Shown here one piece after another: positions 10,857-50,552 of a stretch of DNA of 64,000 nucleotides. This DNA is from Paraspadella gotoi. Its lineage: Eukaryota > Animalia > Chaetognatha. The notes beneath the pieces are model-generated. The model was not told the DNA's origin. It made no database searches and saw nothing but the letters and a program-made list of their open reading frames with translations. The stretch is from NCBI GenBank assembly GCA_051294375.1, contig CM119269.1, positions 14,829,918 to 14,893,917 of the forward strand, given 5' to 3'. Within the stretch, counting starts at the first letter, position 1; each line of letters starts with the position of its first letter. A program made the position numbers and the translations under genes.

Positions 10857-13800
10857 TGAGGGTGCTTTTTTCCCTAAACGCTGAGAATGAGGGAACTCTT
10901 TTCTCCATATCCGCATCCCCCACATCCACCCCCAAACTCCTCCACAAGGTGTGGCTCGAGGCGGCGACCCAGATCTTCTTCTCCCTCGGCCTGTCGTTCG
11001 GCGGCGTCATTGCCTACGCCTCCTATATGCCTCTTCGCAACGATTGCTTCCGCGACGCCATCGTCGTCTCCGTCACCAACTGCGCCACGTCCATCTTCGC
11101 GGGAATCGTCATCTTCTCCATTTTGGGCTTCAAGGCGCACAAGGTTGGTTGATTGATTGATTGTTTGGTATCGAATATTAATATAATTATTTAAAATCAT
11201 TGACAATGAGTAATTATTTATATATTCATTTATTAATATGAAATTTTTATTTGATTTATTGACTAATTAATTTATTTAAAATATAATTTTGATTGATTTA
11301 ATTCTTTCATTTACATGTATAAATGAAAAGATTTGGTTGATTATTAAATTGACTCAAAAAGAAAAAATAATAATTACCATAAATAATGACAATAAATTAT
11401 TTAAAACAAAAATCAAACTTAATAAATCAATTGATTGATTTCATTGTTGCATAATATTAATAATATTTCTTAAATCGACAATCGGAATCTTATTATACTT
11501 TTATTTATAAATAATAATCCGTTTTTCATTTATCCAAGGCGTTGGATCACTGCAACCACGAGCTGGAAGAGTTTTTCCAGCATCAAATGATTCCATTCGT
11601 CTTCAACGAAGAAGGAAATGTCGCCAACGCGTCGACGCTTCCACTTCCCGGCGCCACATACGTCGCGACGACGAACACGACGACGAACACGACGATGAAC
11701 ATGACGATGCCGTCGGTCATTCCGGTTCAGGTGTGGCGGAAGGGAGAGGGTGTAGTGGTGCCATGGCGGGGGGCGAAGAACGCTATGGTGGAGATGAGAT
11801 GCGCTGTGAAAAGGGCGAAGGGTTCTGTGATAGAGAGAGGAGGGGGTTTTGTGATAAGGGCGAGGAGGAAATCGAGGAAGATCGAATTCGTCGCTACGGA
11901 AACGAAATGATGACGAAGCGATTTTCCTTGGCGGTTTTTGCAATTCGCAAAAATTGTAAAGCAAAATAAGTGAGGAGTGAATAAACTCGACTGAGAGAGA
12001 ATTTTGATTTAGAGCTTGCAGGGTCCTGTCTAAAGGCAGGGGCAAGATATCTTATTTATTAAATGAATGGATAATTGATTGTACCAATTTCATATGACAA
12101 AGGTTTTGTGCTAAAACGAGATTCATTTGAAATCAATAAAAAAATGTAAATATTTAAAGTAGTCTCGATTTCCCCCCCCCCCCCCCCCTCCTCCTTAATT
12201 GTAGTTGGTCTGCGACTTGAAGACGGAGTTGAGCACGACGGCGTCGGGAACGGGTCTCGCCTTCATCGCCTTCACCGAAGCCATCTCTCAATTCGGAGCC
12301 TCAGCCCCTTTCTTCGCCGTCCTCTTTTTCCTCATGCTACTCACTTTGGGTAAGTTGGGTTTTTTTTTTGTCGAAGAGAAAGAAAAAAAACTTCTTATAT
12401 TTCATGATTAATTGTACTTCAAAATTAAATTTAATTACTTTTGAATTATAATTATTAACTATTTCTGACAAATTGGATATTATGAGAAAGAAGATTAATT
12501 TTGGAAATATCTTTACTAATTTGTTAGTTAAGTTAAATATATAATTAGTCGTTTTTCTCTTCAGGTCTGGGTTCCATGATCGGCACCATGGAAGGAGTCA
12601 TCACTTCTATGATTGACATGAATCTTTTTCCCGGAGTCAGAAAAGAATTCGTCTCAGGTGGACTCTGCGCGATCCTCTTACTCGTCGCCCACATCTTTGT
12701 TCCGGGTAAGCTTGATTGCTCCCTTGATTTATTCATTGCTTGGTTTATTCATTTGATTGTTTGCTCGCTTGATTTATTCATTGAATCATTGACCCATTAA
12801 TCGATCGAATGATTCAGAGCTGATTTATTTCTTATTTGCCTTTCTCGTTTTACTTTTTCCTGTTTTTTATTTACTTTCTTTCTTTGATTCCTTCGTTCTT
12901 TATTTTATTTTAATTAGCCAAGTCTAATACACTATACAGATAATAATAACATTTTTTTGATAAAAATATGTTTAATAATTATAATAGTCAATCGACTTTC
13001 TCTCTCAGGCAACGGGAATTACATCGTAGGATTTCTCGACACGTTTGCCTGCCCCATTCCTCTCCTAATCATCGCTTTGCTGGAGTGCATCGGAGTCTCT
13101 TACGTCTACGGAGTGAAGAAGGTGAGGCGGTGAAGTCTCTCTCTCTGTCTGTATGTCTGTCTGTCTATCTCTCTTTATATCTCTCTCAACTCAAGTGATT
13201 TATTTGGGAGCCTTTCATTTGTTAATGATATCTATGACAGCTGTCGAGATTCCTCTCTTTATCGTCAGAATAACTGAAGCATTCTTTTTTTTTCAAACTC
13301 GATTGAATTTTTATGATTTATCGGTTTACTGTTGGTTTTAAAGAATGTTTGATTGATTGACTGATTGATTGATTAAATAATTTATTGTTTGATTGACTTT
13401 TTTTTCCAACTCTCAGTTCAGCGACGACGTGGAACTGATGACGGGGCGACGCCCGTCTCTCTTCTGGCAAATTTGTTGGAAGTTCGCTTCTCCCGGAATC
13501 ATGACCACCGTGCTGCTGGCTTGCCTCGTCAAGATGTTCATGTCGCGGCCTACATACGAAATCTGGTAATAGTCGGTGGTCGAAGATATAATTATAATTA
13601 GAAATAGTTAAAAATAGTCGAAAATAGTCAAAGATACTCAAAGATAGTCAGAAATATTCAAAGCTTTCAAAAGACAGTCGAAAATGATAAGGGATAGTGA
13701 GAAATAGTCAAAGATAGTTCAAAATAACGTCAGAAATAGCCAGAGTAAAAAACAAAGACAAAGTAAAAAACAAATCCAAAGTAAAAAAAAATGCCAGGGT

Positions 13801-18564: not shown

Positions 18565-21534
<2,970 letters not shown>

Positions 21535-23672
21535 TTTGAGTAAAATTGCGTTTCCTGTTTTAAAAAAAGTCTGTATGAAATTTTTTTTATTCTATTCTTT
21601 TCGAATTTTTATATATTTTTATCTGTTCCTTTCAAGGAATGAAGTTTCAAATTGTTTTTTTTAGCATTGATTTTTTTTATTTTGACGTTAGCTCTTCTCA
21701 ATTATGTTGTTGTAATTATGTATTTATCGTAGATACTACCCATTATCGTGAATTACATTTACCGGGACTATAACTTGTCAATTTAATGTATATTGTTCAA
21801 TGTTCAATATGAATACGCGATGACATTAGTACAATCAGTACACCTGTTTTAAATAGCCAGTCAGTCATAGCTAGTTAACATAAATTTATAAAACAATTAC
21901 ATCATTCATCGTCGATGCTATAATAATAATAATTGATAATCGGTTTTGACATCTGAATGTTGAAGACGAAAGTTCTGAGATCACTGCGTATCAAACGTGT
22001 TAACAGTAAGGCTAAGAGTATAGATTATTTTTCTTGAGCAATTGTGATGTCAAATGTTGAGGCACATCGATCCATGTCTTGGAAATCTTAAAAACAATAA
22101 TAATCAGTGTCTGTGCAAACTCAGACAAGATAGATACATTACTTACGTCTTATATACAATGAATGAAAACTGCTGATAAACATCGGCGTTAACTCATTTT
22201 ATACAAACCAAATTCATCTATTAACAACTTCGCAAATTAACTATGGTTAAGCGATGCTAAATATATTTCTCAATTAAAAATAGTATGCGTTTTCCTCATG
22301 AAACTATGTTAAACACCAACATTATCTATTAACAAAGCATCTGAGAGATTCTTTACAACCTCGAAAATCGTTAAGAAAAACAGCTTTATCGGCGTGAGAC
22401 ATTTTCGCTGAATTTCCATCTAGCCCCCCCCCTCTTGCGCCTTGGATCTTGGATGACGCACATAAAAGTAAAGATAATCAAGTTAAGTTTATCGAGGGTT
22501 TTTGGAATTAAATAGCACAATAAAACGTTAATTGAGGAAAGCTATGAAACCTTGTAGGCGCTGGAGGGCATTCTTATCTGGATAAAGAGACAAAGTGAAT
22601 GAGTCTTTCATTTCTCCGATGAATTACAAAGGAGTTATTATTTTGGAAATATAATGAAAGAAATCTCGTAGTTTTTAATTAATGAGTTGCCTTCCACTCA
22701 CAACCGGCATTTTTCAGCTTTATCCCATTGTCAAATTCTGATTTCTATGCGAGATGGAAGTACAATATTTTGACCCTTTCGAGCTCAATAATTTTGACCA
22801 CAATATAAATTGTTGCCATTTAAAGGCTTCATTTTTTTTACTTACGCAACGTCATCGCCAATCAAGAGTAAACTCTAAATTCTAAATTCATGATGATGAT
22901 TATAATTAAATATTTTTAATTATTTTCCCAGAAGAATCATAAGTTTCGTTTGGGCTCGGCAATTAATCGCCATGAAGCAACAATTGAATCATTAAATGTA
23001 TTTTTTTCTTTTAATTTAATTAATATTAGATAAAGTTCCCAACGAAAATCATTTAACAGAATCATTCACATGTTGTCATTATATAAAAAATAATCTCTTT
23101 TTTTTTCTGATGTGGATAATAAGATAGAATGAAAAACCAAATTTAATAAAATTTGTCATATTGAAGGGGACTTACCCAGAAACGTGATACCTAAAAAAAA
23201 AAAAAAAATATTAAAAAACAATTGTTAAAATAACTTCGTTATTCACTTGATAATAATTTGCAACTTTTTAGTACCCCATTTAATTTTTAACTAAAAAGGA
23301 AATATACATGGATAATGGATTTCTGCCGGGATGCCGCCTAGTAGAGTGAGGGTATATAGAGGGTATCTGCACTTTACAGATGCCCCCTCTATTTGGGGAC
23401 CGTTACATCTTTGATCGTCAAAATATTCGATGACGATGGCAAAAGCTCTAAATAAACTGATCACTGCATCCGAGACCGCCAACTTTTTTCTTTCTTTGGT
23501 TTTCTTTCATATTTTTTATAGTATTTTTTAGTAAATTGTCCGTAAATGCTGATTTTAACGGGAACGAAGCGCTTATCATTTTTCTAACCCGCCTCAGTCT
23601 ACTACATCATGTAGTTACGTTAATTGCCAGTTAAATATTTAAATTTGCGAACGTAATCAAAAGCTCTCAACA

Positions 23673-25258
23673 ATGTCGCTTCAAACTGTTTTCACCAATT
23701 TGGGCAAAGCGTCTGTCGGTTCGATTTTACGCCACCACACGACAGATTTCGCGAATGCCGTCCGACAAAAGAGCAACGGGTGCTTCGTTTTAGGTTTGGC
23801 CACGTCGAATCCCAAATGGGTTGTGACGAAAGAAATGGCGCTCGGTTTCGCGGAAGCCGTTCAAGTAAGAAACCTTAACCGTCTGATTTGCGGCCCGATC
23901 TCGAGAGCTTTACGTTCAGATATACTCAAAAAATAGCAATTGTTGAAGTTAGTTGTTGTAAAAATAATATTGTACCGTCTTCTGAGCCTAAAAACACTAT
24001 ACAGTAAGGCGTAGTAAAATTCCTAAATTTAACTTTAATTAAAATTCTAAAAGTGAGGAATGAACAACACTATACTAATGAACATTTATGTAATAAAAAA
24101 ATTTAGAATAAATTTTACAATTTACGCAGTAGGCCATATTTATACTAGTACTAAACCAATAAATGTTAAAATTTCAAAACAGTTTTTTTTAAGATTTTTT
24201 TTGCAGATTTGGATTCGTCATAAAAAGTTTATAAAAAGAAATATAACTCTTTTTGAAAAATTCCTTCATTAAGTGGGTCAAAAATTAGAAAAAACTATAT
24301 TTTAAAGTGAAAATTAACTTTTTATATATTAAATATAGTTTTTTAAATTTTTAACCCACCTAATGAAAGAATTTTTAAAAATGATTTATATTTTCTTTTA
24401 TCAACTTTTGACGAGGAATTCAAATCTGTAATCAAAATTAAGAAAAGCCTATTTTAAAATTTTTTGATTTTATAAGTATAGTATTGACTTTTAGAATCTT
24501 CGTATGTAACTTTCACTACGCCTTACTATACAGTATATAGTCAGATTGCTTTTTTATTTATGGGAAAGCTAAATTTTTATAAGAAACATATTATTAAAGT
24601 TTATAATGCAAAAGTTACGCTTGTTCAGACCACTCCTCATTTAAAGAAGATCTATGACGCGACGGGAATAGAACGACGGTGCATCGCGTTCGATCCCAGA
24701 ATCGTCGGTCAAATCGAGGTATGAGTTTGGTGGTCTGTCTGTCTGTACCCTAACTTTAAGCCATTCGGTGTATCGCGAATTATATAATATTCATAAATAT
24801 TATTTGAAATCATTTTTTTACAAAAGCATCGATGACGTATTACGTCATTGGTATTTCTAACTGTTTCTTTACTTCTTAGTTTTAAATTCCAACGAGTATT
24901 ATTCAACGAGCTATTGTTTGTCAAAATTCACAAACATTCAAGAGCATAAAACTTAACAATTTCATAAATATTTAGTTAACTCCCCAACGAAGGAGCGATT
25001 TATGGTGGGAATCCGCGAAGGAGTTGACGACGGCGGCCATCTTGGAAGCGATGACGAAGGCCGGTGTCGAAAAGCATCAAGTGAGAAAAACTTTAGGTCG
25101 AGAATTAGTGTTTCTATGAAATTGGTACAAACAATATAAAAATTATCCATTCATTTAATAAATAAGCTATCTTGCCCCTGACTTTGGACAGGCTTTGATG
25201 GTTTAAGGTCTCCATCACTATCATTATCACTATATTATTATCATTATTATTATTATTA

Positions 25259-25297
<39 letters not shown>

Positions 25298-27914
25298 TAT
25301 TATGTTGTCATTTTATAATTCTAGGTAAAGTCTCATTTTTTTCAAACTCGTAAAATGGTATCATGAATTGGCCGCATAACATTTTGTCATTGATTCGTTC
25401 CGCTACTTCCGCGTGTCCATTGTCCATTGTCCAATGTCTAGATCGGTAGCCTCATCTTCATGTCGACGACGGAATGTCGCGCGCCAGGGATCGACGTCGC
25501 TCTCGTCAATCAACTCGGATTCGACGCTGACGTCAAGAGGACATTTTTGGGTGAGGCGGCATTTGGGAACGGGAAAGGTGGGTGGGGGGTTGTTGGGGAA
25601 ATGAAATATAAACAGTGTTGGCAGGGAAGAGAGATGATTCAGTAATCTAACGTCTCAAACCGTCGCGAGCTCAAAGCGGAAATAGACTCCTAATCTTAAA
25701 CTTAAAGACCAGTTTGATCAATGGTTAGGATGGATGGGCTGCGGCGCCGCCATCAATGGACTCGAACTCGCGCGAAATTGGGTCATGAGCGGCGCCGACG
25801 TCAGCGATAACGACGACGGGTGAGAAAGCCCTTTTACCGTTTAATACTAATCTAATGCAATATATTTTGTGTTATGTTCTTCATTAATATTGGATGAACA
25901 AATTCGACAAAGAAGTCGAAAGTGAAAATTGGTTTTGCAATTAAAATTCGACCTTTAAGGCTGCGAACTTTAAAGTTTTATAGAATTAAAATTACACGTT
26001 CTACTAATTAATTGAAAATATTTCTTCATTAGTTTGAGGGCCACGACGTTAATCTTCAACATGATTCTACTTTCAGTAGGGTGGCCCTTCATGTCGCCAT
26101 CGATTTGCCTTCTTATCACATGTCCTTCGACAGAAAATTAGAGGTTAGCGTTAAACTATGATTTATCACTATCCTCTATATTTTTTCAAGCATTTCCTTA
26201 TTATATTAGAATTGTATTGCTAATTCACACAAAGTCCAATTATCCATATTTCTAATGTTTTTTGTATTTTCACGCCAAGACTGATAGTCTTTTGTTTTAT
26301 AACGAAGAGCGCCATCTTCCACGCGCTCATGGGCGACGGATGCTCCGCAACAATTCTTGGCGGGGAAAAGTTAGTCGGTCAATCTTCGAAAGGAGCCGAA
26401 GGCGGAAGCGGTTTGTCGGTCGAGTTGGCGGACAGCTTTTCCTTGGTTGTGCCAGGAACAGAGGACATTGTTTCCTGGGGGGTCAACATCGGAGCTAACC
26501 TTTCTAAGGATCTCTCGGACATCGTTCAAAGTCAGTATTTAGCTTTTTATGATTTTTTTTTTAGTTTATTCTTAAATGATTTCTGGAAATTATATGGTAT
26601 ACATTACGAAAGCTTATTTAAATTTATTTATCATTAAACACGAATGGATATATCATAATACATATATTATATATAAAAAAAACAAAGGTCAAGAATAAAA
26701 AAGTACTGAGAAATCGACTTGTTAAAGAAACACATAATAACAGTCTGCTTTTTGCTTCTTGTTTCTCCATTTTGCTTCTTAAGTTATGACAACATTTACG
26801 ATTCAAAGTAGCGTTTTACCATCGTGAGTTGAAGGATGAAGGAACGAAAAAATCGATCGAAAACCAACTGAATAGTTGAGATTAAAACCTATGTATAATG
26901 ACTTAATGTATTTCTATTTTTAATTTGTATTTTTATCTGAGGTAAAAAAGTAAACGCAAACAAACACTGCACAGTGCACAGTGCAGGGTCAATAAACCTT
27001 GGTCAGAATCAGTAAACAATTGTTTTTAAAACTATATATTTTTCAGGCAATATTGGACCGGCCTTGACGGGATTTTTAGCTAAAAATGGATTACATCCGG
27101 GAGACGTGGACCATTGGTGCGTACATCCGGGGGGACCCAGGATCATCGAAGCCGTAGAGAGAAGTCTGGGTCTGGGCGAACATCAAACGCGGGAGTCGTG
27201 GGAGGTGTGGACACGGTTGAGGTGGTGGTTTGGGCCTTGGGGGTGGTTGGTGAATTAAGGTGGGTAAGATCGGGAGAAAGGAATATAATACAAATTGGCA
27301 GCCTACGACAAAAGTGTGAGCCGATAGATAGGGAATAGATGGCCATTGGGCAATTGCGCTGTAATAGCGGATGTTGGGGAGTGAGTTGGCGAAGAGTGGA
27401 CCTCCTAAGAGTGAATCAGCGGGGTCTGTGAAAGCTGGCCGAGTTTCCAGTAATAAGTATAAATGAGAGAAAACGAGAAAATAGAACCAAAAAAAAAAGA
27501 TTATGATGGAGTGAATCTCGAGTATTTCGGTCAAAACCGACGGAGAATGATTGGGGTTGAGAAACGGGCGGAGGCGAAGAAGCTTCGATATTTTTTTTTT
27601 AATATTCTGTTCGGAGTTTAATGTCTGACGCGAATCAGATAACATGATTGAGTCGTTCCGTAATAATTACCGAATCACCACCTGGTCTCAAACACACGTT
27701 TATCTCTTTTCAGGTTTTGCGCAACTTCGGCAACATGATTTCGCCAACCGTGATGTTCGTCGTTGAGCGAGTCCTCGAGCGGCTGGGCAAAGAGGTCGCA
27801 AACGACGCCAGTGGGTCAAGTGACGCCAACGGCCCTTACAAAACCATCGTCGCTCTGGGATTCTCTCCCGGGGTCTCTGTTGATGGGGTTTTGCTGAAAT
27901 GCTATCGGAAATGA
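23673..27914 (+). CDS. Type III polyketide synthase (chalcone synthase superfamily, Pks18-like), 411 aa, 9 exons
   Basis: Exons 23673-23864, 24629-24718, 24976-25080, 25442-25550, 25729-25819, 26077-26143, 26308-26530, 27047-27204, 27714-27914 join in frame (1236 nt), all GT-AG. Motifs LGLATSNP, IY.ATGIERR, STT...APGID, WMGCGAAINGL (Cys), GDGC, WCVHPGGPRII (His), VLRNFGNMIS (Asn), GFSPGVSVDG. Confidence 0.93.
24002..24528. mobile_element. Fold-back MITE (Tc1/mariner-like ends, TA flanks) in PKS intron 1
   Basis: Terminal inverted repeats CAGTAAGGCGTAGTAAAA / TTTCACTACGCCTTACTA flanked by TA. The interior is an imperfect palindrome centred near 24317. Confidence 0.8.
25117..25217 (+). mobile_element. 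Repeat family A copy in PKS intron 3, followed by (TTA)n
   Basis: TGAAATTGGTACAAACAATATAAAAATTATCCATTCATTTAATAAATAAGCTATCTTGCCCCTGACTTTGG matches 2645-2737. Confidence 0.7.
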
Positions 27915-29166
27915 CGCATCACTTGATGATTTGTTCACATATTTGTGAACAGTTAAAATGGTTTGGCTTTGTAAACGTACTTATAGATAGATAAACAAAT
28001 TGTAAAAACTGGGTAATCATTATTCTTAGTAGCATTTGAAAGATGTCTTCTCTCATTTAACTTCATCTGTTTGTTGACATAAATTTGTCAGAACAGTTGT
28101 AACAGTTCATCACATTAATAATAAATAAATATTAAAACTTAGATCTGAGGAAAAGAATCGTCAATCATCATGTATTAATATCAAGAGTCTATGATGATGA
28201 TCATGTCGTTTTCACTCATTTGTAGTTACGGTATGTAGCAGTATGAATTGCTCCACGCCTAAATAAAATATGAATTCAAACAGAATTTGAATGAATTGAG
28301 TATGATTTTTATAATGGCGATCATCAATCAGTTATGCTTTCTCAGCAAATGAAAATCTCGAGGAAAGTGCACAGGGCCCTCATTCTTCTTATCTGTTTGC
28401 CGTCAAGGGTTCCTAGACTCGGATTGGAATCCCTTCGGGGGCAGGGTCCGACGTGACAAGTCAGGGTTCATAAATTAAAAAAAAAGAGCCTAGCGAATTT
28501 TTTTAAATTTTATAGAAACTAACTAACAACCAAATATATCAGGTCTCGGACCCTATTATTTCTAGAATTATAGGAAATACATTCCATTTTTAAGTTTTCA
28601 TTGTTAAACTTATGCCCGGGTCGGAGTGTTCTTTTTTTTTCTCTCTTTTTTTTTCTCAACATCCGGGGACGGGGAGTTACGTGGTCGAGGCTGCGCCGCT
28701 GCTCTGCCGCGTGGCCTCGGGAGGGGCGGCGTGAGCTGAAGCAGCCGCCGTCGATTGAGAAAACAGGGAACGAAACTCGCCTTCTCTTTAAGTTTAACTC
28801 GTCCTCTCCGCTGGAGAAACGAAAAAAAACTGTGACGAAACAAAGAGAGATAGAGAGAGAGATCAACTGACTCGGATTCAACTTCGTCCGAGTAAGCCAT
28901 ATTTTTCGACGCGTTTCGGCGACTCGCCCTTGAGAAGGATAAATTGGTGACCCTTAAGGTAGGTTAGTGGGGCGCGAGAAACCACACTTGTTTTGTGTCC
29001 TACAAGGTCCGGCTTGCGAGAAGGACGGAGAAAAAGCTTGAGTTTTTAGTAGATATTAACCATGTGTCTTCGGCTGCAACGGAGATTCGCGGAAAAAACA
29101 CCTGATCATTATTTATTTTTTAGTCATTGTCTTTTTTCCCTCAGTAATTTATATTAACTTAATTTT

Positions 29167-29320
29167 ACTTTGGCCGACCGGGGTTAGGGGTGGTTTAGGG
29201 TTAAAGGTGGTTAATGGGTAGGGTGGTGAGGGTTTAGGTAATTGAATATTTTTTTAAATTTATTAAAAAACATTTTTAAATGGTTTTTCAAAAGATGCCA
29301 AAACCCCGGTCGGCGAAAGT
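29167..29320. mobile_element. Small inverted-repeat element enclosing degenerate TTAGGG-like repeats
   Basis: ACTTTGGCCGACCGGGGTT (29167-29185) and AACCCCGGTCGGCGAAAGT (29302-29320) form an 18/19 inverted repeat. A GGGTTAGGGG..TTTAGGGTT tract lies inside. Confidence 0.6.
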
Positions 29321-29850
29321 TATTAATCTGTAGCAAATTATTGGTTTTTACATAAATAGATATAAATAAAATTATAGAAAAAAGATGGGTCACAATCCTG
29401 AACAGTAAACAATCATGCACAATGTGCAACTTTTAATTTTTTTACGCGAAGCAAACAATTTTTGCGCTTAATTTTATTTTCGCCGACTGGAACCAAACCA
29501 GTCGCTTATTTTTATGTATCAAAACTTTATATATATAATTGATGTTAATAATCAAGCAATTAGGTTTTTTTATTTTGTTTTTTTGCACATGACTTGAGCA
29601 GTGAACATTCGCGATGAAATTCTGTTCTGGTCGGGAATTGAGTAATTATCATTACTTGTTTCACTTTTATTTAGTTTTTGGGTTTCAAAAGATATATACA
29701 TGTATATATATATATGTATATACATGTAATTACCATCCCCGCTTTACCAGGCGCATCAACCAAGTTGGCTGACTGAACTAAGATATGCTTTTTGCGGTTT
29801 TATAACTTGCCTATCTCATATCGAACGTTGATTGAACGAAGAGCTACAGC

Positions 29851-30606
29851 ATGAGTCTAACTTCCGTGGTTCGCTTGGCGTCTCGTACGCAGAGGACGGC
29901 CGTTTTAGGGTAAGGTTTAGGCCCTAAATCAACTTTCATCATAACTCTGCGTTTCACAGTAAATTTCCCTGAAATGGGTAAAAAATCTGATATTTTTTTA
30001 AAATTTTTATCACTTATATGGTTTTAGAATTCAGATTAAATTCAAATTCACGAGCGTTTCATCCGTTATTAAGTTAAATTTGTGAAAGATGCATATTTAT
30101 TAATTATAAATACATGAAATTTTTATAATACATTATTCAAACATGAAGATGGAGACTCGATCGTGGCGTTCAAGCAAGCTGTAATCGTGGTTTTCAAACG
30201 ACGCCCGAACGCCCTGCCGTCAACGTGATACCTGACAGCAATTTAAGAGATATTGAGGAGACCAGGGGATCTTTGTACAAATTAATCTGGAAGGCGAGTC
30301 TTCTTGAGAAAATTTCTCTTATTTTCATAATTTAACTGGTATTAATTTTTCTTTTAGCGCAAATTCACCTGGTTGATCATTTTTGGAGGCATTGGTGCCC
30401 TCATTTTTGAATTGGTCCATCCGGATAAAGAGAACAGAAGCAAACAGCTGATGAAGGACTGGAAGAGTGGAGGGTAAGGCAATCTCGACAGCCATGTCAA
30501 CGGCAAATGGATTTAGTATAACCCAAAACCCTTTGTATTCTATTTCAGATCCTACAACAAACCCGAGAGAGGCATCAAGAAGGACCCTCCCGAACAGTCT
30601 TCCTAA
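29851..30606 (+). CDS. Small (125 aa) predicted mitochondrial single-pass membrane protein, unidentified
   Basis: Exons 29851-29909, 30149-30293, 30358-30473, 30549-30606 join in frame (378 nt; intron 2 has a GC donor, AAG|GCGAGT). Protein: MSLTSVVRLASRTQRTAVLGWRLDRGVQASCNRGFQTTPERPAVNVIPDSNLRDIEETRGSLYKLIWKRKFTWLIIFGGIGALIFELVHPDKENRSKQLMKDWKSGGSYNKPERGIKKDPPEQSS. Confidence 0.7.
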
Positions 30607-32360
30607 AAATGTGCAAATTGTTTTTAACCATTCAAAGCTCGTGTTTCGTTATTTTTTCAATATGACTTTATTAATTACCGGGATTAAAAGCGTCTTTTAT
30701 TGCTTAATCCTTTGCCCTGCGTTTTTTCGGTTTTTTTGATAAATAGAAATAAAATTAATTTGATGTGTATCGATAATGATTTCAGTCCAATAAATATGAG
30801 TCACTTGAAAAATTTTTTTTTTTATCACGACTGCAGAATTATTGTGATTAGTAATCACCGACTACTTGTTAGCAAGTGTATGAGGTTAGCGTTCAGAGCA
30901 TTACTAATGTTTGTCATCAATTTAAATCCATACGACGGTTTATTATTTCTAAAATAATTGAAATTGCAATCAAAAAGTAGAATATAATATGATTAATTTT
31001 TGTCAAAAAAAATTAATTATTAATAATGAAACAACGTTAAACATTAGACCTTACTGCAATATTTTTAAACAAAAGTTACATCACATGGCCTTCGCAAGGT
31101 TGAACCTCGATTTTTTTTCCATCGTGCGATTAGCGGTCGTCAGATTCCAGCACCTATTTGTTTAAAGGATTGTCTCCCTGCGTTTTAAGACAAAAGGACA
31201 ATTCTTTCTTCCTGCTTAATTCCTGCAAAAAATTCCTACAAAAAAAATCCTTGCAGTGCAACGATAAAAATTGTCGTTTTCGTTACACCTTTTTCCTACC
31301 TTTTCATTTGCATAATATTATTTTATATACATAAGTACGATTTTGGCCGAGAATTGGCTTCACACGGTTCAAGCGAAGGCAAAATAGAACGTGGAATAGT
31401 CGACAAAGAAAGACGGAAGAAACTTCCGTCGTGTCAACACATTTCTTTTTTTCTTTTTTTTTTGCGTCTTTTAAAGACGATCTCGATCTCGGAACCATTC
31501 CTAATGTTGCTAATTACGGATTCTTGAAAAAACTCGTCTGTTATTTATTTTTTCAAAGTTAAACTGACTCGTCAACAAACAGCCTCGCCGAGTTAATAAG
31601 TATTTAACTTATAAGCCCGTATTCTACTTTATATACACATTAAACAAGCATTTTTCACTCAAACTCATTTTATTTACAAATATTATCACTGTCACAAACA
31701 ATTTGTAAAGTTGTGAAAAAAAGTAAACACTTCTAACTTAAAACATGTAATCTCGAAACCGTTGCTTCCGGATATAGTATATATCGTTGACACAACGTTA
31801 AATGTGACATGGAATCAAGTCGGTAATAAATGGAACGGGAAGTAAGAATAATAATAATAATAATAGTTATAATACTTAGGATGATTCAACTCACACAAGG
31901 CAGACGTCAAAGAACTGGACGTTTGTATCAATCTTCAGTCAAACACGAACGGATCCCGATAACGGGAATTAGACGCGGATAAAAATCGAAATGGATATCA
32001 TTAGTCAGGACGACGTCAAAGTCAGTGAAAAGTAACGAATAAAAAACAATGTTGCCACTGCATTCGGCGGTTTTTTGAGAAGCGATAATCAAACGTAAGA
32101 CGGGGATGATGCAGACGACAAGGACGCGAAAACATCGAAAATAAGAATGGGCTAAGTTCAACTCAATTGCCATGGGAACCAAAAGGCAAGATCCTCGCGC
32201 AATCACGAGTTTAAGTTTTTAGATATTGGTTTCGCGTGCGTCGTTGCAAAGGCAAGACATGGAAGGGTTATTTGTTGATTTTACTTATTAAGTCGCGGTT
32301 TAGTTTGTTATGGTGTACAATTAAGTGTCAAATCTTTTTCGTTGTTGTTCTTGTTGTTGA

Positions 32361-34434
32361 TTAAACGATAACTTCATACAGCGTCCTCTTGACTGGCTTT
32401 TGGAAGAGCGGCTGAGTCGGGCGATTGGCCGGCTGAGGGGCGGGGGGTTCCGACGCCGAATACCCGCTATCGGATCCGTCGGGTTTGACCGACTTCTTGA
32501 GGTCGTCCTCGAAGTCTATGATGTAGGGACTTTGGACGTCGCCGCGTCGAAGGGCCAGGCTTGAGTCTACGACATCCGGGTGATTCACGCGGTGATGGGG
32601 GTTGTTGTTGAAGGCGGAGTTGGGGGGAAGGGGCCACTCCATTCGCCCGGCGGGAGCGGCTTTGACGGGGGCGGTGTTGAAATGACCGGAGAGTCGATGA
32701 TGGGGGTGTTGGGAGTTGTGGGTGTGGTTGTGTTGTGGGTGGAAGGGCTGAGGGAAACCGTTGACGCCCGCCGTAGCGCCGTTGGGAGTCTGCGTGGAAT
32801 AAATCCCGGCGACGTCGCCCGGAGACGCCTCCAACGCCGGATTGTCGTGGTGACCGGCGCCGATTTCGGGCGCCTTCTCCACGTCATAGTCCAAAGCCGG
32901 GTTTTTCTCGAGAGTCGGCGCCCTCCTGCCGCGCACGACGCCGCGGAGGCAGAAGCAGACGCCGAGGATGAGGAGGACGAGGACGAAGACGACGGCGGCG
33001 ACGACGGCGACGACGACGGTGAGAACGCCGTTGTCGGGCAGCATCAGCGTCTCCCACGGTCCGCAAACGTCGGGCTTGTCAGCTACGCAGACTGCGGCGC
33101 GGACGGCCCCCAATTGGCTCGGTAGCGAATGGCGCGCGATGTCGGCGTCGGCGCAGGGGGCGTGGCTCTCGAAAGAATCGGCGTCTCGTCCGCGGACTTC
33201 AATCTTGATGCACTTGCGCCACGTGGCGGCGCGACTGGCGTTGTAGCGGAGCGTAAGACCGCCGTTGGCCACGCCCAAGTTTTGTGGCGTCGGAAGGTCG
33301 TCGCGCTTCACCGGAAATTCACGCGTCATGAACGACGTCTCCCGAGTGACGCTGAACCCGTGGGCGTTACGGGACATCATGCGCGCCACGTAACGGGTCG
33401 CTGGTTGGAGAGTGGTGAGCTCAAAGACGAAGGGTTCTCCTGAGAAGATGATGAACAATGTTTGTAAGTATCAAAGCATATTATTAGCAGGTTCATATAC
33501 TGAGTTTAATTATTACTATGGTTTATAATCAAAAATAAATAAATTCAAACAATTACAAAGCTTTATAATCATTATTCAATGACCGTTTTAACTTTCTCTC
33601 ACCTTCAAACCCGATCTCGAGCCTCTTGGGGATGGCCTCGGTGTGCGGGTCCATCTCCACAAAAAAGGTCTGTGACAATCCGCCGTTGAAACCGGAGGTC
33701 CACGTCAGCGTCGCCGCGTTGAATTTAACGTCGGTGACGGAGACGGTCGTCGGTGGATCCGGTTTCGAGGAGACCTGCGTGAGTGATTTCAGAATGAGGT
33801 AATGTGTCGTGAGTTTTGAAGAGTCTCTGGATCACCAGCAGATAAAATATAATGCAAATGATGTCCGAAACTGAGGCTTAGAGAAAATTAATGGTCAATC
33901 CGGAGTTCAACTGAAGCAATTAATTGTATTAGTATTTATTACTAATAAAGAATTGTTATCCTGACTTCGATACTTTGAGTTTTCATCAAATCCCCGACTT
34001 TCTGGTAATAATATGATTCATCCTACCTTCAACTCCATGGTGATCTGGTCTTTGCCGAAAGCGTTCTCCGCGGCGCACTCGTACGTTCCCAAGTCGTCCC
34101 TGGCGACCGACTCGAAGCGAAGGATGCTGTAGAAGGTGTCGTCCACTCGAGTGGAGGTGACTTCGAGCCCCGCCTCCGCCACGACCTTCGTAAACGTCGG
34201 CGACGATGAAGGCGACGACGACGACGACGGCGACGAGCGTCTCCAGGAGAATTCGGGCGGGGGGTAGGCCGTCGCTACGCAACGAAGCTCCGCGACTGCG
34301 CCGAGGTTGAAGGCGAACTTGGTAACGCTCTGGTGGAGGAATTGAGGAACGAGATTAGTTGATGATCTTGAATTTGTATCTGGCGTTATCTCTGTGTTTG
34401 TGTGCTTCTTTCTCTGCTCAGGTTTTTTATCTCT

Positions 34435-34489
<55 letters not shown>

Positions 34490-34495
34490 TCTTCT

Positions 34496-34570
<75 letters not shown>

Positions 34571-37500
34571 ACCTTCCTCGAGCCTCGGCTCGTATTCCAC
34601 GTTGAGCTTTCCCCATTTTTGAACTCTTTTTTTGGCACTCCCCCACCCGTTATCCGCTCTGCAGGCGAAGGCGCCCTTGTCCTCGGGTTGGATTCGGTCG
34701 AAGGGACTGCGGACGGAGTCGTCGCCGCCCACGCCGCTCAGGTTCAACTCGCTCGTCGTCTCGTCGCCGGTAGAGGCGCCTTAAGTTAAGGGGATTTAAG
34801 GGGATTAAGGCTGATAAAATTCAACCAACAATTTAGCAGATTGAAATTTTTATTTTTTTAAATTTTTCTTATTTCTAATTTTTTTTACTTTTCGCGAAAT
34901 AAGTAAAAAAACCCTGAATTTCATGAACAAATAACGTTTGGTTTTTAAAATAATTATCTTAAAATTAAAATCTATTGAATGCTTTTTATTACCCCCTTAA
35001 AAAATCCAAATTCACCCAAATCTCTTACTTTTAATGTCGTAGAGCGATCCGCTGTTTAATTTCGCTCCGTCTTTGAACCACGTGATGTTGGGCGCGGGTC
35101 TGCCCTCTGCCCGACAACTGAGACTGAAGGTTTGCCCGGCGGCGACGGTGGCGTCGGCAAGATTGGAGAGAAGCGTCGGCGCCAAGTTGACGGCGACGTC
35201 GACGCGGGCGGCGAGACCGTCGCCGAGGGCGTTCTTGCCGTAGCAGGCGTAGACGCCTGGCGTGGATAAAAATGAGTTTAAAATTATAGTTATAGTTATA
35301 GCTAAGGTGAAAAAAGTCGATTGAAATTGGTACAACCGATATTAACCATTTATCCTCTCATGCAACAAATTCGCTATCTTTTCTCCTGACTTTGAACAAT
35401 GGACAAATTGGACATAGCAAAGGCCACTATTGGTTAAGACTCAAGACTCTCTCTGTCGGCCTTGTTTAATTATTTTTAGAGCAATAAGGCTATTGTGTTG
35501 CGTCCACACTATCTTGCTTTGTCGTATTAGAAATAATACATTTTCAAATCATAAAAGTCTTCATTTGTAGAATTATTTATATATTAGTATATACTATAAA
35601 CTACGCAGTAACTTTCCTCTTTACCCTAACATTAAACTGTTTGACGAAAGCCTTTTCAACTTCTCCCTTTCACTTCGCCCCGCTAACCCACCCAGCCCTT
35701 TCCCTCTCCTCTCAGCCTTACCTTCGTCGTCCAGCTGCGCGTTGGAGATAGAGAGGGTGTCGGCGATGCTGGTTTCTCCGTTGGGTTTCGTCCAGTGGAT
35801 CGTCGCCTTCGGGATTCCGAAGTCTTCGAGGAGGCATTTCACCGTCGCCGTTTCGCCCTGGATTAATGATAATATTCGAATTGATTGAATAATTGATTTA
35901 TTAAATTATTTACCGATTGATTATTTATTTATTTAATTAATTGATGATTATGGTAATTTGCTTCAATTTATCGATTCTTTTGATGTTTGACAGAATTGAT
36001 TTTTATTATTAATTTAATACTTTGATTTATTGATTGATATGATGATTGGATGATTGCCCGACTGATTTCCAGAGTCTTTTTTCCTCCCCTCCCTCTCCGC
36101 CCTTCCCGTGAAAGATGTTGCTCGTATTTGACCAGATGACCTTAATTCTCTCGGTATTGATCGTTTGGGTCATTTTCAGCTCTCTATTCTTTTCTTTTCT
36201 TTCTCACCTGCAGTATGTTAGCGTTCCCCTGCACCGAGGCTTTTCCCGGTTTGTGTCTGACGACGATCCTCGTGATCGCCGTCCCTCGCTCGTACTCCAA
36301 CGCGCCAACCGTGGGCACGAGGGTGTTCATGCTGGTGCACTCGTACTCGCCGGCGAGATCGCGTCTTACGGCGTCGACGCGGAGAAAGCGCGACTGGGAG
36401 ACGACGTCGTTGTTGCGGCGCCAGACGACGCTGTCCGGGCGAGGGTTGGCCTCGACGATGCATTCCAGCTCGAGAGCGGCGCCTGGTGGAGGATGACAAA
36501 AAAGGGTTGGGAGAGGGCGGTGTGGTTTTTTTTTTTTCAAATTGTCGAGTCAATGATTTTCATTTTACTAAAGAATTTTAGTGATTTATTTAGGCTACTG
36601 TTTTAAACGTAAAATATAATCTATTTTATGCCACAGGAATCGTGTGGATTTTTCTTTTTTAAAAGTAATTTAATACGAACCTAAACAGAACAAGTTAAAC
36701 AAACGACAAACTGAAACCAGATTTCACAAGTTGAGAAATTAACTTACCTTCGTCGACTTCGTGGACGGGGGCCACTTGTACATCGGGTCTGAAGAGGACA
36801 TTCAAATTGAGACTGGCCTCGCCGGATCCGATCGGGTTGGACACCTTCGCGAAGAGGGGGGGAGGAAAGTAAAGAAAGGTAAGTTAACTTGAAAAATAAT
36901 ATGCAAAACAAGTTCCATTCTCTTCAAAGTTCTCTCCAAAAACCGCGACCCACCTTGCATCGATATTCTCCCTTCTCCTCCCGGTCGACGGCCTTCAACG
37001 CCAGCACGCCTCCCCGCTCCGCCAATCGCGTCGTCGATCCCTCGAATGTCCTCGTCCACTCGAAAACGTCGACGGGCGGATTGGCGTCCACTTCGCAGGT
37101 GACGTTGGCGTTGCGTCCCTCGATCACGCGTAACTGGTCGTCGGAGGCGGGGGCCAGGCGCACGCGCGGACGGAAGTTGACGGAGACGGTGACGGTGGAG
37201 ACGAGCGGCGCGGAGATGGCGCTGTTTTTGACCGAGCAACTGGAAGGAAAGAGATTGGTGAATGGTGAAAGAAGATGCTTCAAGCGGGTTGTTGAAAAAA
37301 TCGCGGGAGAGAAAATAAAATTAAAAACAAAATGTTATTTTCGAGGGGGGAAATAAAAAAAATATAATGAATAAATAAATAAATATATATATATATATAT
37401 ATAAATAAATTACTAATGAAATTACTAAATAAATGAATATAAAAAGAAATCAAAAATAAATAAATTTAAAAAAAATCGTAATTTAATTCATAAATAAATA

Positions 37501-38397
37501 GATAAATAAAAATTAAATACATAAATAAATAAAATATTCATGCCCCTCGAAGTACAATTCACGTGATTGCGTCCTCCTCTTTGACTCACCCAAAGGTGGC
37601 GCCGTGATCCTCTCGCGCGAACTTGTGGGTGAGTATCGACTTCGTGGCTCGAGGGTCGTCGAAGTCCATCCGGCTCCGGGTGAGTTCGACGCCGGGCGTT
37701 CCGGCGTCGCTTCCCGGCGTCCGCCGCGTCCACACGATTTCCGGCCTGGGATTTCCGGTCACCCGATTCGCAGGTCAAATCCACTTCGCTTCCCTCGACA
37801 AAGGGACTCGAGAGGCTGAGACCTTCGCCGGCGGAGATGGTAGGGGGGCCTGGGGAAGGGGAGGGCGAGGTGGTTTGGGGGAGGGGGTTAGGTGGTGGGT
37901 GGGGTGAGGTGGGTAAAGGAGAAAAAGTTGTTGTTTAATGACTTGAGAAAAAAAAAACAAAAGTAGAAATGATGTATAGCTGCTCCCTCTATTCGCAGAA
38001 GTCAACACTAACTACCCTCGTTCCGTCTCAAAAATAACATTTTAAATAAGGCTTATTATTTACATATTTTTTATTTATATCTAAACAAATCATTTTAGCA
38101 CTTTTCAATCTGTTCATAAATAGTCGCGCAACTTTTACCCTCTCATAAGATAACTCACTCGGCGGGACGAGCACGACGACCCTGGCGTCCTTGAGATCCT
38201 CTCCGCCCTGGCAGATGTACTTCCCGTTGTGCAGATCGAAGTCGACGTCGTCGATGCGGAGGTCGAACCCGTTCTCCGTCCGCATGTTGGGGTCGGAACC
38301 CATCGGGGTCACCGAGCCCTTCCGGTCGCGGAAGAACAGCACCTGGTTGGGGAGGGGAAAGGATAGGAGGGGATCATAGTCGTCGTCGTTGTCGTCG

Positions 38398-38464
<67 letters not shown>

Positions 38465-38771
38465 TATCGTCGTCGTCGTCGTCATCATCATCCTCACCTT
38501 AGGAACCACGTCTGCCTTCATCCACGTGAGGGTCACGTTTTTTCCTTGGACTTCGCACTCCAGAGTCACCGATTCACCGGGACGGACGTTTTGGCTGAAA
38601 ATAATAATTAATATATGTAGTTTTGAAAATAAAAATAGTAATTTTATAATTCAATCCATCCGCTGATGCTGAAACTGACCTCCATTGGTACTTGGTCCTT
38701 GCAACGCGTCGCCACCAACGACGATGCCAAAGAAAAGTCACGACGACGAATCCGGAAACGATCGACGCCAT
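32361..38771 (-). CDS. Echinoid/fred/nephrin-like immunoglobulin-superfamily adhesion protein (multiple Ig, FN3, TM, PDZ-binding tail)
   Basis: About 13 exons with Ig motifs (VTLECEV, NGKYIC, CEVDANPP, LECIVEANP, GEYEC, CRAEGRPAPNITWFKDG, GAFACRADN, GTYECAAENAFG), FN3 (LTWTSGFNGG, LQPATRYVARM), TM VLTVVVAVVAAVVFVLVLLILGVCFCL and C-terminus LYEVIV (Drosophila Echinoid ends EIIV). One apparent +1 frameshift near 37763. Confidence 0.82.
35322..35430 (+). mobile_element. Repeat family A copy in IgSF gene intron
   Basis: TGAAATTGGTACAACCGAT...GCTATCTTTTCTCCTGACTTTG. Confidence 0.6.
38378..38492. repeat. (TCA)n/(TCG)n microsatellite in IgSF intron
   Basis: Direct reading. It explains the poly-Met in the ORF track. 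Confidence 0.95.
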
Positions 38772-39314
38772 TTTGAATTCACTTCCGGTTTTTTTGGGTT
38801 TTTTGTTTTTTGTTTTGTTTTTTTCTTCTTTCGAATTTGCGTTGAGCCGCAGTTTGTGCGACTTTAAAACTGATTTATATTAGTGTTTAATTAGTTCAAT
38901 AACTTTTTTTCATGATGATTTTATCTTAACAGGGGTCAAACGCTCCGTTTTCACAGTTTCTCCCCCTTTTTCACTTTCCCCTCTTTTCACACGCATCCAA
39001 CCTCACGCAATTAAGGATGGCACCGAAGTTATAAACTTTCCAAATTTTTTTTTCTTTAGAAAAAAAAAATGGGATGAGACCGAAAGAAAGAAGAGGATTA
39101 AGTCTTTGGCAAAAGATGTGCGACCAAAAGCTCTTCTTTTTTTTATTCACTTTGTTGTTCTTTTTTCTTCTTTGTTTTTCTTCAGTTTTAAGTTTTAGGT
39201 TTGGATGTTTCGGGTTTTTTAAGTTTTTTCGTTGTTTTCTTTTTTTGTCTCTCAAAGACAATCGAATCGTTTGTGGCTTCGCTTTTGGTGAGAAATCTGG
39301 AAGAAGAAGAAAGG

Positions 39315-39339: not shown

Positions 39340-41390
39340 GTCTCTGTTGATGGGTTTTGCTAAATGCTATGGAAGACTGACATCACTTGATGATTTGTTT
39401 CACATAGTGAAAGTTATATTTTAAATGGTTTGGCTTTGTTAAACGACTTATAGATAGATAAACAAATGTTAAAACTGGGGTAATCATTATTCCTTAGTAA
39501 GCATTTGAAAGATGTCTCTTCTCATTTAACTTCACTCTGTATTGTTGACCATTAAAATTTGTCTCAGAACAGTTTGTAACAGTTCATCACATTACATAAT
39601 AAAAAATATTAAAACTTAGATCTGAGGAAAAGAACTACGTCATCACTCATTATTTAATATCAACGAGTCTATCGATGATGATCATGTCGTTTTCACTCAT
39701 TTGTAGTTAGGTTATGTAGCCAGTATAATTGCTCCAACGCCTAAATAAAATATGATTCAAACAATTTGAATGAATTGAGTAGATTTTTATAATGGCGATC
39801 ATCAATCAGTTTGCTTCTCAGCAAATGAAAATCTCGAGGAAAGTGCACAGGCCCTCATTCTTCTTATCTGGTGCCGTTCAAGGGTTTCCTAGACTCGGAT
39901 TGGATCCTTCGGGGCAGGGCCGAACGTGACAAGTCAGGGTTCATAAATTAAAAAAAAAGAGCCTTTTAGCGAATTTTTTTTAAATTTTATTAGAAACTAA
40001 CTAACAACCAAAATATAATCAGGTCTCGGACCCTATTTATTTCTTAGAATTATAGGAAATACATTTCCATTTTTAAGTTTTCATTGTTAAACTTATGCCC
40101 GGGTCGGAGGAGTGTTCTTTTTTTCTCTCTTCTTTTTTTTCTCAAACATCCGGGACGGGGAGTTACAGTGGTCGAGGCTGCGCCGCCTGCTCTTGCCGCG
40201 TGGCCTCGGGGAGGGGCGGCGTGAGCTGAAATCAGCCGCCCGTCGATGAGAAAAACAGGGAACGAAACTCGCCTTTCTCTTTAAGTTTAACTCGTCCTCT
40301 CCGCTTGGAGAAACGAAAAAAAAACTGTGGACGAAACAAGAGAGATAGAGAGAGAGAGATCACTGACTCGGATTCACTTCGTCCGAGTTAGCCATATTTT
40401 TCCGACCGCGTTTCGGCGACTCGCCCTTGAGCAAGGAATAAAATTGCAGTGGACCCTTAAGGTTAGTGTTAGTGGGCGCGAGAAACCACACTTGTTTTGT
40501 GTCCTACAAGGTCCGGCTTTGCGAGAAGGACGGAGGAAAAAAGCGTGAGTTTTTAGTAGATTATTAACCATGTGTCGTTTCGGCTGCAACGGAGATTCGC
40601 GGAAAAAAACACCTGATCATTATTTATTTATTAGTCATTGTCTTTTTTTTCCCTCAGTAATTTATATTAACTTAATTTTACTTTGGCCGACCGGGGTTAG
40701 GGGATGTTAGGGTTAAAGGTGGTTAATGGTTAGGGTGGTTGAGGGTTTATGGTAATTGAATATTTTTTTAAATTTATTAAAAAAACATTTTTTAAATGGT
40801 TTTTTCAAAAGATGCCAAAACCCCGGTCGGGCGAAAGTTATTAATCTTAGCAAATTATTTGGTTTTTACATAAATAGATATAAATAAAAATTATAGAAAA
40901 AAGATGGGTCACAATCCTGAACAGTAAAACCAATCTTTGCACAATGTGCAACTTTTAATTTTTTTTTACGCGAAAGCAAACAATTTTTGCCTAATTTTTA
41001 TTTTCGCCGACTGGAACCAAACCAGTCGCTTATTTTTTATGTATCAAAACTTTGTATATATTATAATTTGTGTTAATAATCAAGCAATAGAGTTTTTTTA
41101 TTTTGTTTTTTTGCACATGACTTGAAGGGCAGTGAACATTCGCGAGATTGAAATTCTAATGTTCTGGTCGGGAATTGAGTAATTATCATACTTGTTTCCA
41201 CTTTTATTTAGTTTTTTGGGTTTCAAAAGATAATACATGTATATATATATATGTAATAAATACATGTAATTACCATCCCCGCTTTAACCAGGCGGCATCA
41301 ACCAAGTGGCTTGGACTGAAACTAAGATATGCTTTTTGCGGTATAACTTGCCTATCTCATATCGAACGGTTGATGAACGAAGAGTACAGC

Positions 41391-42183
41391 ATGAGTCTAA
41401 CTTCCGCTGGTTTTCGCTTGGCGTCTCGCTACGCAGGGCACGGCCCGTTTTAGGGTAAGGTTTAGGCCCTAAATCAACTTTCATCATAACTCTGCGTTTC
41501 AACAGTAAATTCCCTTGAAATGGGTAAAAAATTCTTGAATTTTTTAAATTTTTATCACTTATATGGTTAGAATTTCAGATGTAAATTCAAAATTCACGAG
41601 CGGTTTCATCCGTTATTAAAGTTTTAAAATTTGGTGAAAGATGCATATTTATTAATTATAAATACATGAAATTTTTATAATACATTATTTCAAAACATGA
41701 AGATTGGAGGGACTCGATCGTGGGCGTTCAAGCAGAGCTTGTAATCGTTACTATCGGTTCAACGGACGCCCGAACGCCCTTTGCCCGTCACGTGATACCT
41801 GGACAGCAATTAAGAGATATTGAGGAGACCAGGGGATTCTTTGTACAAATTAATCTGGAAGGCGAGTCTTCTTGAGAAAATTTCTCTTATTTTTTCATAA
41901 TTTAAAACTGGTATAATTTTTCTTTTAGCGCCAATTCACCCTTGGTTGATCATTTTTTGGGCATTGTGCCCTTCATTTTTGAATTTGGGTCCATCCGGAT
42001 AAAAGAGAACAGAAGCAAACAGCTGATGAAGGACTGGAGAGTGGAGGGTAAGCAATCTCGACAGCCATGTCAACGGCAAATGGAATTTAGTTTAAACCCA
42101 AAAACCCTTTGTATTCTATTTCAGAGTCCTACAACAAACCCCGAGAGAGGATCAAGAAGGACCCTCCCGAACAGTCTTCCTAA
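41391..42183 (+). pseudogene. Frameshifted duplicate of the small mitochondrial protein gene (likely artefact)
   Basis: Collinear with 29851-30606. The GC donor AAG|GCGAGT is retained at ~41860. Confidence 0.6.
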
Positions 42184-46162: not shown

Positions 46163-46207
<45 letters not shown>

Positions 46208-49200: not shown

Positions 49201-50552
49201 ACATGCCCCTCGAGACGTACAAATTCACGTGATTGCGTTCCTCCTCCTTTGACTCACCCCAAAGGTGGCGCCGCACATCCGTGATCCCCTTCGCGCGAAA
49301 TTGTGGGTGAGTATCGACCCTCCGTGGCTCTAGGGTCGTTCGAAGTCCATCGGGCTCCTGGGTGAGTTCGACCGCCCGGGCGTTCGGCGTCGCTTCTCCG
49401 GGCGCTATCCGCTGCGTCCACACGATTTCCGGCCTGGGGATTTCCGGTCACCGATTTCGCAGGTCAAATCCACTTCGCTTCCCTCGACAAAGGACTTTCG
49501 AGAGGCTGAGACCTTCGCCGGCGGAGATGGTTAGGGGGGCCTGGGGGAAGGTGAAAATTATCGGGAGGAACAACCTCGGGCGATGGTGCGTTTGGGGGAG
49601 GGGGGTTAGGTGGTGGTGGGGGTTGAGGTGGGGTAAAGGAGAAAAGTTGTGTTAATGGACTTGAGAAAAAAAAAAAAACAAAAGTAGAAATGATGTATAG
49701 CTGCTCCCCTCTATGCGCAGAAGGTCAACACTAACTACCCTTCGTTCCGTCTCAAAAATAACAAATTTTAAATAAGGCTTATTATTTTCATCATTTTTTT
49801 ATTTTATATCTAAACAAATCATTTTTATGCACCTTTTCAATCTTTTTCATAAATAGTCCGCGCAACTTTTACCCTCTCATAAGATAAACTCACTCGGCGG
49901 GGACGAGCACGACGACCCTGGCGTCCTTGAGAATCCTCTCCGCCCCTGGCAGATGTTACTTCCCGTTTGGCAGATGCGAAGTATCGACGTCGGTCGATGC
50001 GGAGGTCGAAACCCGTTCTTCCGTCCGCATGTTGGGGTCGGAACCCATCGCGGAGTCACCGAGCCCTTTCGCGTCGCGGGAAGGAACAGGCACCTGTTTA
50101 TGGAGGGGAAAGGATAGGAGGGGATCCATAGTCGTCGTCGTTGTCGTCGTTCGTCATCATCACCATCATCCATTCATCATCATCATTCATTCATTCATCA
50201 TCATCATCATTCATCATCATCATCATCATGATTCGTCGTTCGTCGTCATCATCATCCTCACCTTAGGGCAACCACGTCGCCTTCATCCACGTGGAGGGTC
50301 ACGTTTTTTTCCTATGGACCTTTCGCACTCCCAGAGTCACCGATTCACCGGGACGGACGTTTGGCTGAAAGAATAATAGTATTAGTAGTTTTGAAAATAA
50401 AAAATGCATAGTAATTTTTAATAATTCATCCAATCAGCTGATGCTGAAACTGACCTCATTGGTATCTTGGTTCCATTTGCAACCGCGTCGGCCACCAACG
50501 ACGATGCAAAAGAAAAGTCACGACGGACGAATCCGGAAACGATCGACGCCAT
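43996..50552 (-). pseudogene. Frameshifted duplicate of the echinoid-like gene (likely artefact)
   Basis: Collinear with 32361-38771; ORF fragments (RTLYEVIV, VVAVVAAVVF) broken by many indels. Confidence 0.7.

Follow-up and report, generated by a model that had tools for sequence, protein, structure and literature searches.

Polyketide synthases (PKSs) of type III have been described in plants, bacteria, fungi, amoebae and ochrophytes, and the polyketide chemistry of animals is credited to type I PKSs, to enzymes like fatty acid synthase (FAS) or to symbionts. In a survey of animal polyketides in Nature Communications (PMC10764717) the term 'type III' occurs not once. The only animal precedent that we found in the open-access literature is a ctenophore report (PMC6005172), whose excerpted text describes ML18354a of Mnemiopsis leidyi, a gene annotated as chalcone/stilbene synthase, expressed during tentacle formation and with a single intron, a plant best HMMER match and an inferred bacterial origin by horizontal transfer; it is 88-95% identical in six of the seven ctenophore comparisons listed there. 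The algal PKS1 enzymes are themselves thought to be of bacterial origin, according to excerpts of three sources (bioRxiv 10.1101/2024.02.19.579948, PMC7284882, PMC8133574). Here we analyze a stretch of 64,000 nucleotides of the chaetognath Paraspadella gotoi (contig CM119269.1 of assembly GCA_051294375.1; hereafter the window), where a gene at 23673-27914 on the forward strand encodes a type III PKS, a known kind of enzyme in an unexpected kingdom. Like ML18354a, it is an intron-bearing and expressed animal gene for which a horizontal transfer is proposed, and the existence of ML18354a and of its matches in other ctenophores weakens the suggestion, implied by a first-pass annotation made from the sequence alone, that such a gene would be the first in animals. 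We found no report of the window gene in the open-access literature; judged by the published description of ML18354a, it seems to be separate from that gene and much more diverged.

The first-pass gene model was exact. Nine exons splice to 1236 nt that encode 411 amino acids, free of stops except for the terminal one, the codons of the catalytic triad are where they had been placed, and all eight introns (164-764 nt) are bounded by GT-AG. The parts of the gene are as follows.

23631-23864, forward strand: exon 1, with the 5' untranslated region (UTR) from 23631 and the ATG at 23673; it encodes a basic, acid-poor N-terminus of 36 amino acids that does not align with relatives
23996-24534, no strand assigned: element in intron 1 resembling a miniature inverted-repeat transposable element (MITE), with 24-nt inverted ends and very high copy number
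24629-24718, forward strand: exon 2
24976-25080, forward strand: exon 3
25115-25192, no strand assigned: short interspersed repeat of the host, lying within intron 3, with further copies at 2643-2718 and 12025-12094
25442-25550, forward strand: exon 4, with a Chal_sti_synt_N match (E 4.9e-5, under the cut-off) and Thr138, Thr139 and Glu140
25729-25819, forward strand: exon 5, with the catalytic Cys170 (codon at 25740)
26077-26143, forward strand: exon 6, mouth of the acyl tunnel, with Asp205, Pro207, Tyr209, His210 and Met211
26308-26530, forward strand: exon 7, with Met226 (gatekeeper position), Trp275 (position of Pks18 Leu266 and ArsC Gly284) and Ala281
27047-27204, forward strand: exon 8, with the catalytic His319 (codon at 27124); its top type III PKS match in PDB is Ectocarpus PKS1, 4B0N
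27714-28191, forward strand: exon 9, with Asn352 (codon at 27732), Ile354, the stop at 27914 and the 3' UTR; Chal_sti_synt_C match of 28.2 bits (cut-off 27)

The gene is transcribed and spliced in its host. A single contig of 1555 nt from run X9, one of nine public sequencing runs from three studies that contain the stretch, spans 23631-28191 with joints at all eight predicted introns and has no differing letter in the eight pieces listed (exon 6 is absent from that listing, but is bounded by two joints). We took X9 as RNA by guess and from the precise loss of all the introns of the gene. An AATAAA stands in the 3' UTR at 28120. The transcript begins right after a CAG (23624-23631), as expected from a trans-splice acceptor; it carries no visible leader, and the DNA runs have a different letter at 23631, so that this start may be due to chance.

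The gene is also encoded by the host and integrated in its genome. In run X1 the contig depth was 84.5 at exon 1, 92.6 for the heterogeneous nuclear ribonucleoprotein (hnRNP) A gene upstream and 87.6-101.3 for four downstream contigs. DNA runs from two further studies also contain it, at a depth close to that of its neighbors and with allelic differences; in X5 and X6, from another study, four exonic ones were found among the 40 places listed of 60, two silent and two replacements at poorly conserved sites. The X1 depth drops to 3.7-4.7 over 25476-26543 (exons 5-7), a gap that X5 and X6 fill, and coverage holes of this kind can stem from filtered records in contig data. Both intronic repeats reported in the first pass were found again. 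The arms of the MITE-like element (23996-24019 and 24511-24534) are inverted and 88% complementary, and its summed contig depth in X1 reaches 788,861 vs. ca. 90 for single-copy DNA; the intron 3 repeat, also of enormous summed depth, has one of its other window copies within an SLC6 gene. The GC content at third codon positions is host-like (0.62, vs. 0.63 in the hnRNP gene and 0.53-0.77 in four other host exons), and tblastn finds one copy of the PKS in the window. Runs of N occur only at 39315, 58740 and 61288, none of them between the PKS and its flanking genes.

Judged by its triad, length and domains, the protein is a type III PKS of the free-standing ketosynthase (KS) type, its 411 residues falling within the ca. 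350-420 aa usual for such enzymes. The triad is in register with all nine aligned relatives, the GDG, HPGG, GNM and FSPG motifs are retained, and the full-length alignment to Ectocarpus PKS1 reaches E 1e-71 (218 bits, vs. a maximum of 23.9 in 200 shuffles). Searched exon by exon against Pfam, three of the nine exons match, the N domain in exon 4 and the C domain in exons 8 and 9 (E 2.8e-5 and 2.2e-6); one passes the cut-off alone and the other six give no type III PKS family. A grouping with FabH, thiolase or HMG-CoA synthase, which the first pass had wished to see checked, is not what exon 8 indicates, being closer to DpgA (E 2.8e-8) than to fabH (0.0089) and scoring higher with Chal_sti_synt_C than with ACP_syn_III_C. 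Of the PDB matches of this exon, those passing as single stretches belong to type III PKSs; its TAL-repeat matches, which were summed repeats with no passing stretch, were discarded. A search of JGI metagenome contigs with exon 7 gave one locus (L081), also discarded because its resemblance, to an unrelated open reading frame (ORF) of prokaryotic appearance, was due to chance. Exon 8 against longer proteins gave five candidates, none of which scored (weak evidence). In the protein P0121 of Cymbomonas tetramitiformis (4818 aa), 12 stretches match the type III PKS C-terminal profile, a tandem array or a fused gene model.

In a first comparison with bacteria, which covered 79 of 80 loci, chiefly from planctomycetes and actinomycetes, identity to the window PKS was 26-35%, with a maximum of 164 bits. 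We then searched with a profile of exons 8-9, other profiles being swamped by full-length bacterial scaffolds, and this led to the ochrophyte PKS1 family. Among 1.84 billion representatives the profile found no orthologue near the self score (top single-domain score 118 bits, vs. 215 for self on a near-identical local profile). The best of 291 compared proteins are of PKS1 type, from pelagophytes, brown algae and plankton sequences (233-236 bits, 35-36% identity over ca. 390 aa), and the top bacterial match is a cyanobacterial Pks18-like enzyme (218 bits, 35%), the maximum full-length identity to any protein found being ca. 36%. No named animal appears in the 120 of 305 family matches listed, nor in 20 clusters checked. 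Two trees, of 53 rows (15 of the 68 collected were dropped for run time) and 47 rows, neither with plant, fungal, amoebal, ctenophore or FabH enzymes, group the window PKS with the algal PKS1, the Pks18-like enzymes of cyanobacteria, Nocardia and Mycobacterium, and the cluster P0224, with support of 100/99 in both. These alignments and trees firmly place it in the Pks18/Ectocarpus PKS1 subfamily, the affinity that had first been proposed from motifs.

Within this subfamily the active-site cavity stands apart. With Ectocarpus siliculosus PKS1 (4B0N; P0282) and its ochrophyte relatives, its best-scoring relatives, the window PKS shares the triad, a His-containing 'HA..DG' helix and the GTED and GNM.SP motifs. 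Mapping to Pks18, PKS1 and ArsC shows Gly replaced by Glu140, Glu by Asp205 and the gatekeeper Phe (Phe215 in chalcone synthase, CHS, numbering) by Met226; the Cys-Val-Asn-Ala at 205/207/208/209 of Pks18 becomes Pro207/Tyr209/His210/Met211, and Leu266, Cys275 and Leu348 become Trp275, Ala281 and Ile354. The gatekeeper is generally, but not always, kept, and is Leu in benzalacetone synthase (excerpts of PMC6274091), so Met226 does not disqualify a type III PKS. Unlike the window protein, algal PKS1 has a hydrophobic signal anchor (here the maximum 19-residue hydropathy is 0.81), has Leu, Phe and Gly where Trp275, Met226 and Glu140 stand, lacks Pro207/Tyr209/Met211 and the three-residue deletion described below, and does not come from an animal. 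The mycobacterial Pks18 (1TED) and its cyanobacterial and Nocardia relatives, members of the same clade, are 31-35% identical. Only two of the eight long-tunnel residues of Pks18 (A52, S143, C205, N208, A209, H221, L266, L348) are identical, Ala56 and His223, which together with a hydrophobic residue at 354 match A52, H221 and L348 (as excerpted from PMC6274091); at the other positions we find Thr138, Pro207, His210, Met211, Trp275 and Ile354, and the changes of C205, N208, A209 and L266 to Pro, His, Met and Trp likely narrow the long acyl tunnel. By this mapping the backbone would work like that of the Pks18/PKS1 group, with a long-chain specificity that is doubtful, and since the cavity differs from those of both Pks18 and PKS1, neither long-chain alkylpyrone nor phloroglucinol chemistry can simply carry over.

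By analogy with the chemistry of the family, an acyl starter would load onto Cys170, which would carry the chain, His319 and Asn352 would decarboxylate malonyl-CoA, and extension and cyclization would take place in one cavity. The CHS positions 197/256/338 are occupied by His, Trp and Ile, and bulk there goes with small starters and early lactonization, as in 2-pyrone synthase (PMC6274091, in excerpt). These residues, together with Met211, Tyr209 and Pro207, may shrink the cavity in the same way, and chains would therefore stop early. Some Sargassum PKS1 enzymes make 4-hydroxy-6-methyl-2-pyrone, according to the excerpted preprint (bioRxiv 10.1101/2024.02.19.579948). The mapping, the rules given in the review and the Sargassum pyrone lead to a predicted order: a synthase of short- to medium-chain pyrones, then a resorcinol synthase, then altered chemistry. 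We thus hold it somewhat more probable than the contrary that this is a spliced host PKS of the Pks18/PKS1 type, likely an old horizontal acquisition, which would extend an acyl-CoA of short or medium length by two to three malonyl-CoA units, giving a small alpha-pyrone or, with lower probability, a ring of resorcinol type. As main product, a pyrone would have not quite an even chance; an alkylresorcinol or resorcylate seems unlikely, a diketide or other altered chemistry slightly more so, and phloroglucinol is improbable.

Several points weigh against this reading. The Gly, Glu and Phe replaced by Glu140, Asp205 and Met226 are kept by all nine aligned relatives, and the hairpin after Trp275 is short by three residues, before Ile279; with conserved positions changed and this loss, the enzyme may be weak or its chemistry altered. 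Trp at the position of Trp275 yields resorcinols in ArsB and ArsC-G284W, yet Pks11, a pyrone synthase, also has Trp. The branch of the window PKS is long (1.6-1.75), and no one donor stands out in the trees. Finally, among the contigs listed none joins the hnRNP gene and the PKS with 31 letters on each side; the X1 pieces there end at 23185 and restart at 23223, at a run of A.

The strongest of the alternatives, which we nevertheless consider unlikely, is that the same host gene encodes an aldol-cyclizing alkylresorcinol or resorcylate synthase, in which Trp275 would fold a tetraketide like Trp281 of ArsB. Trp275 aligns with position 284 of ArsC via L020 and Pks18 Leu266, that is, with the position that sets aldol vs. 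lactone closure in Azotobacter ArsB and in ArsC G284W (3VS9), where Trp goes with aldol closure and the G284W change shifts ArsC towards alkylresorcinols (PMC6274091, in excerpt); relatives from planctomycetes that carry this Trp are reported to produce alkylresorcinols (PMC10896814). On the other hand, Pks11 makes pyrones with the same Trp, and Ile354, like the bulky mouth of the tunnel, resembles the restriction of 2-pyrone synthase. ArsB and ArsC belong to another subfamily and to a bacterial cluster fed by acyl-ACP; beside the window PKS there are no tailoring or partner genes.

Less probable again is an enzyme that has drifted, perhaps within mitochondria, to another reaction (one condensation only, the making of a diketide or methylketone, or the transfer of an acyl group). 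The Met226 gatekeeper, to be compared with the Leu of benzalacetone synthase, Glu140, Asp205 and Pro207, the longest branch of the tree and the composition and amphipathicity of the first 36 residues would agree with it, but the triad and the GDG, HPGG, GNM and FSPG motifs are all retained. These 36 residues, for which relatives have no counterpart, contain four K/R and one D/E (none of the 339 other stretches compared has one or fewer acidic residues), and their amphipathic moment is exceeded by 83 of 2000 shuffles (p ca. 0.04). In the main reading, too, this extension may, though less likely than not, be a mitochondrial presequence, a weak lead.

As to the origin, the window PKS is the deepest and longest branch of the Pks18/PKS1 group, sister to the whole group and not nested in it. 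In the approximately unbiased (AU) test, with groups defined after the tree was seen and the grouping with P0224 outside the set, a sister position to the algae was not rejected (p 0.066), one with cyanobacteria and actinobacteria was weakly rejected (p 0.027) and a planctomycete-type placement was rejected (p 0.002). An algal or other eukaryotic donor would be as plausible as a bacterial one. The gene was likely gained by horizontal transfer, probably an old one; this part of the first-pass proposal stands as the best reading, and the alkylpyrones, alkylresorcinols or phloroglucinols that it named are possible products. The cluster P0224, with ENA contigs (0.46-0.66 Mb) and one Logan contig of 1547 nt, encodes a deep Pks18/PKS1-like enzyme, called as one ORF, to which no relative in GTDB is more than 40% identical; it may represent a further acquisition by a eukaryote. 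Vertical inheritance, by which an ancient type III PKS of eukaryotes or animals would have disappeared from most lineages and would be tied to the ctenophore gene and the P0224 group, could invoke the deep position beside P0224, the eight introns and the chalcone-synthase-type gene of ctenophores. We regard it as very improbable: many losses would be required with no named animal among the matches mentioned above, the ctenophore gene has one intron, a plant best match and strong conservation across the majority of the ctenophores compared, and its authors detected no such gene in the remaining RefSeq animals (excerpts of PMC6005172). A chimeric assembly that took in DNA from a contaminating or symbiotic alga or protist, to which the algal best matches, the X1 hole and the lack of a bridging contig among those listed might point, is scarcely credible given host high-copy repeats in the introns, depth equal to that of the neighbors at both ends, presence in three studies, X5 and X6 coverage of the hole, only 35% identity to any alga and a second assembly copy that repeats the 3' linkage.

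The surroundings are those of an animal chromosome, with genes for an amino-acid transporter, SLC6, an amidohydrolase, hnRNP A, a small spliced protein and an Ig-domain membrane protein. The first pass had set the PKS between the hnRNP A gene and an echinoid-like gene, a label that rests on a C-terminal motif. The upstream side of this arrangement holds; downstream, a small four-exon gene (ca. 28870-30450, forward strand), spliced in X9 and coding for a short protein that is basic and has a single hydrophobic stretch, precedes the Ig/fibronectin type III (FN3) gene. No bridging contig is listed on the hnRNP side, and the PKS 3' end is joined to the downstream animal genes also in the second, noisy assembly copy. 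This copy belongs to a repeat across a 25-N gap (27873-39314 vs. 39340-51123, ca. 11.5 kb, 88-90% identity) with about three times as many gaps as mismatches and single-copy read depth, which is a false duplication from noisy long-read fill; the same fill accounts for the frameshifts in the second copy of the Ig-domain gene. In the G-rich tail of the hnRNP gene (20528-21091) all four runs contradict the assembly, with at least 11 small indels, homopolymer errors by which the frame is broken in the window alone. The hnRNP A gene itself (18733-20430) has named relatives at no more than ca. 60%, the best at 51-60% identity over two RNA recognition motifs (RRMs); it forms a clade with P0009, P0033 and P0011 (71-74%) that adjoins rotifers with weak support (86/76). 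A search against Rfam gave no matches.

A wider scenario, which we think rather unlikely, is that an animal lineage took a PKS1/Pks18-type gene from an alga, a protist or an unsampled bacterium independently of ctenophores, and that with eight introns, a mitochondrial presequence and a rebuilt cavity it makes an aromatic polyketide of its own, which would be the first functional type III PKS of an animal, fed by mitochondrial malonyl units. The window PKS would be a candidate for transfer from alga to animal. The ctenophore gene shows that the family entered animals before, which makes the find less surprising, but turns repeated recruitment into a pattern that can be tested. A fully domesticated and expressed type III enzyme makes it possible to ask, with one gene that is easy to express, if animals form pyrones or phenolic rings by the route of plants and bacteria, and its rebuilt cavity may yield a new product.

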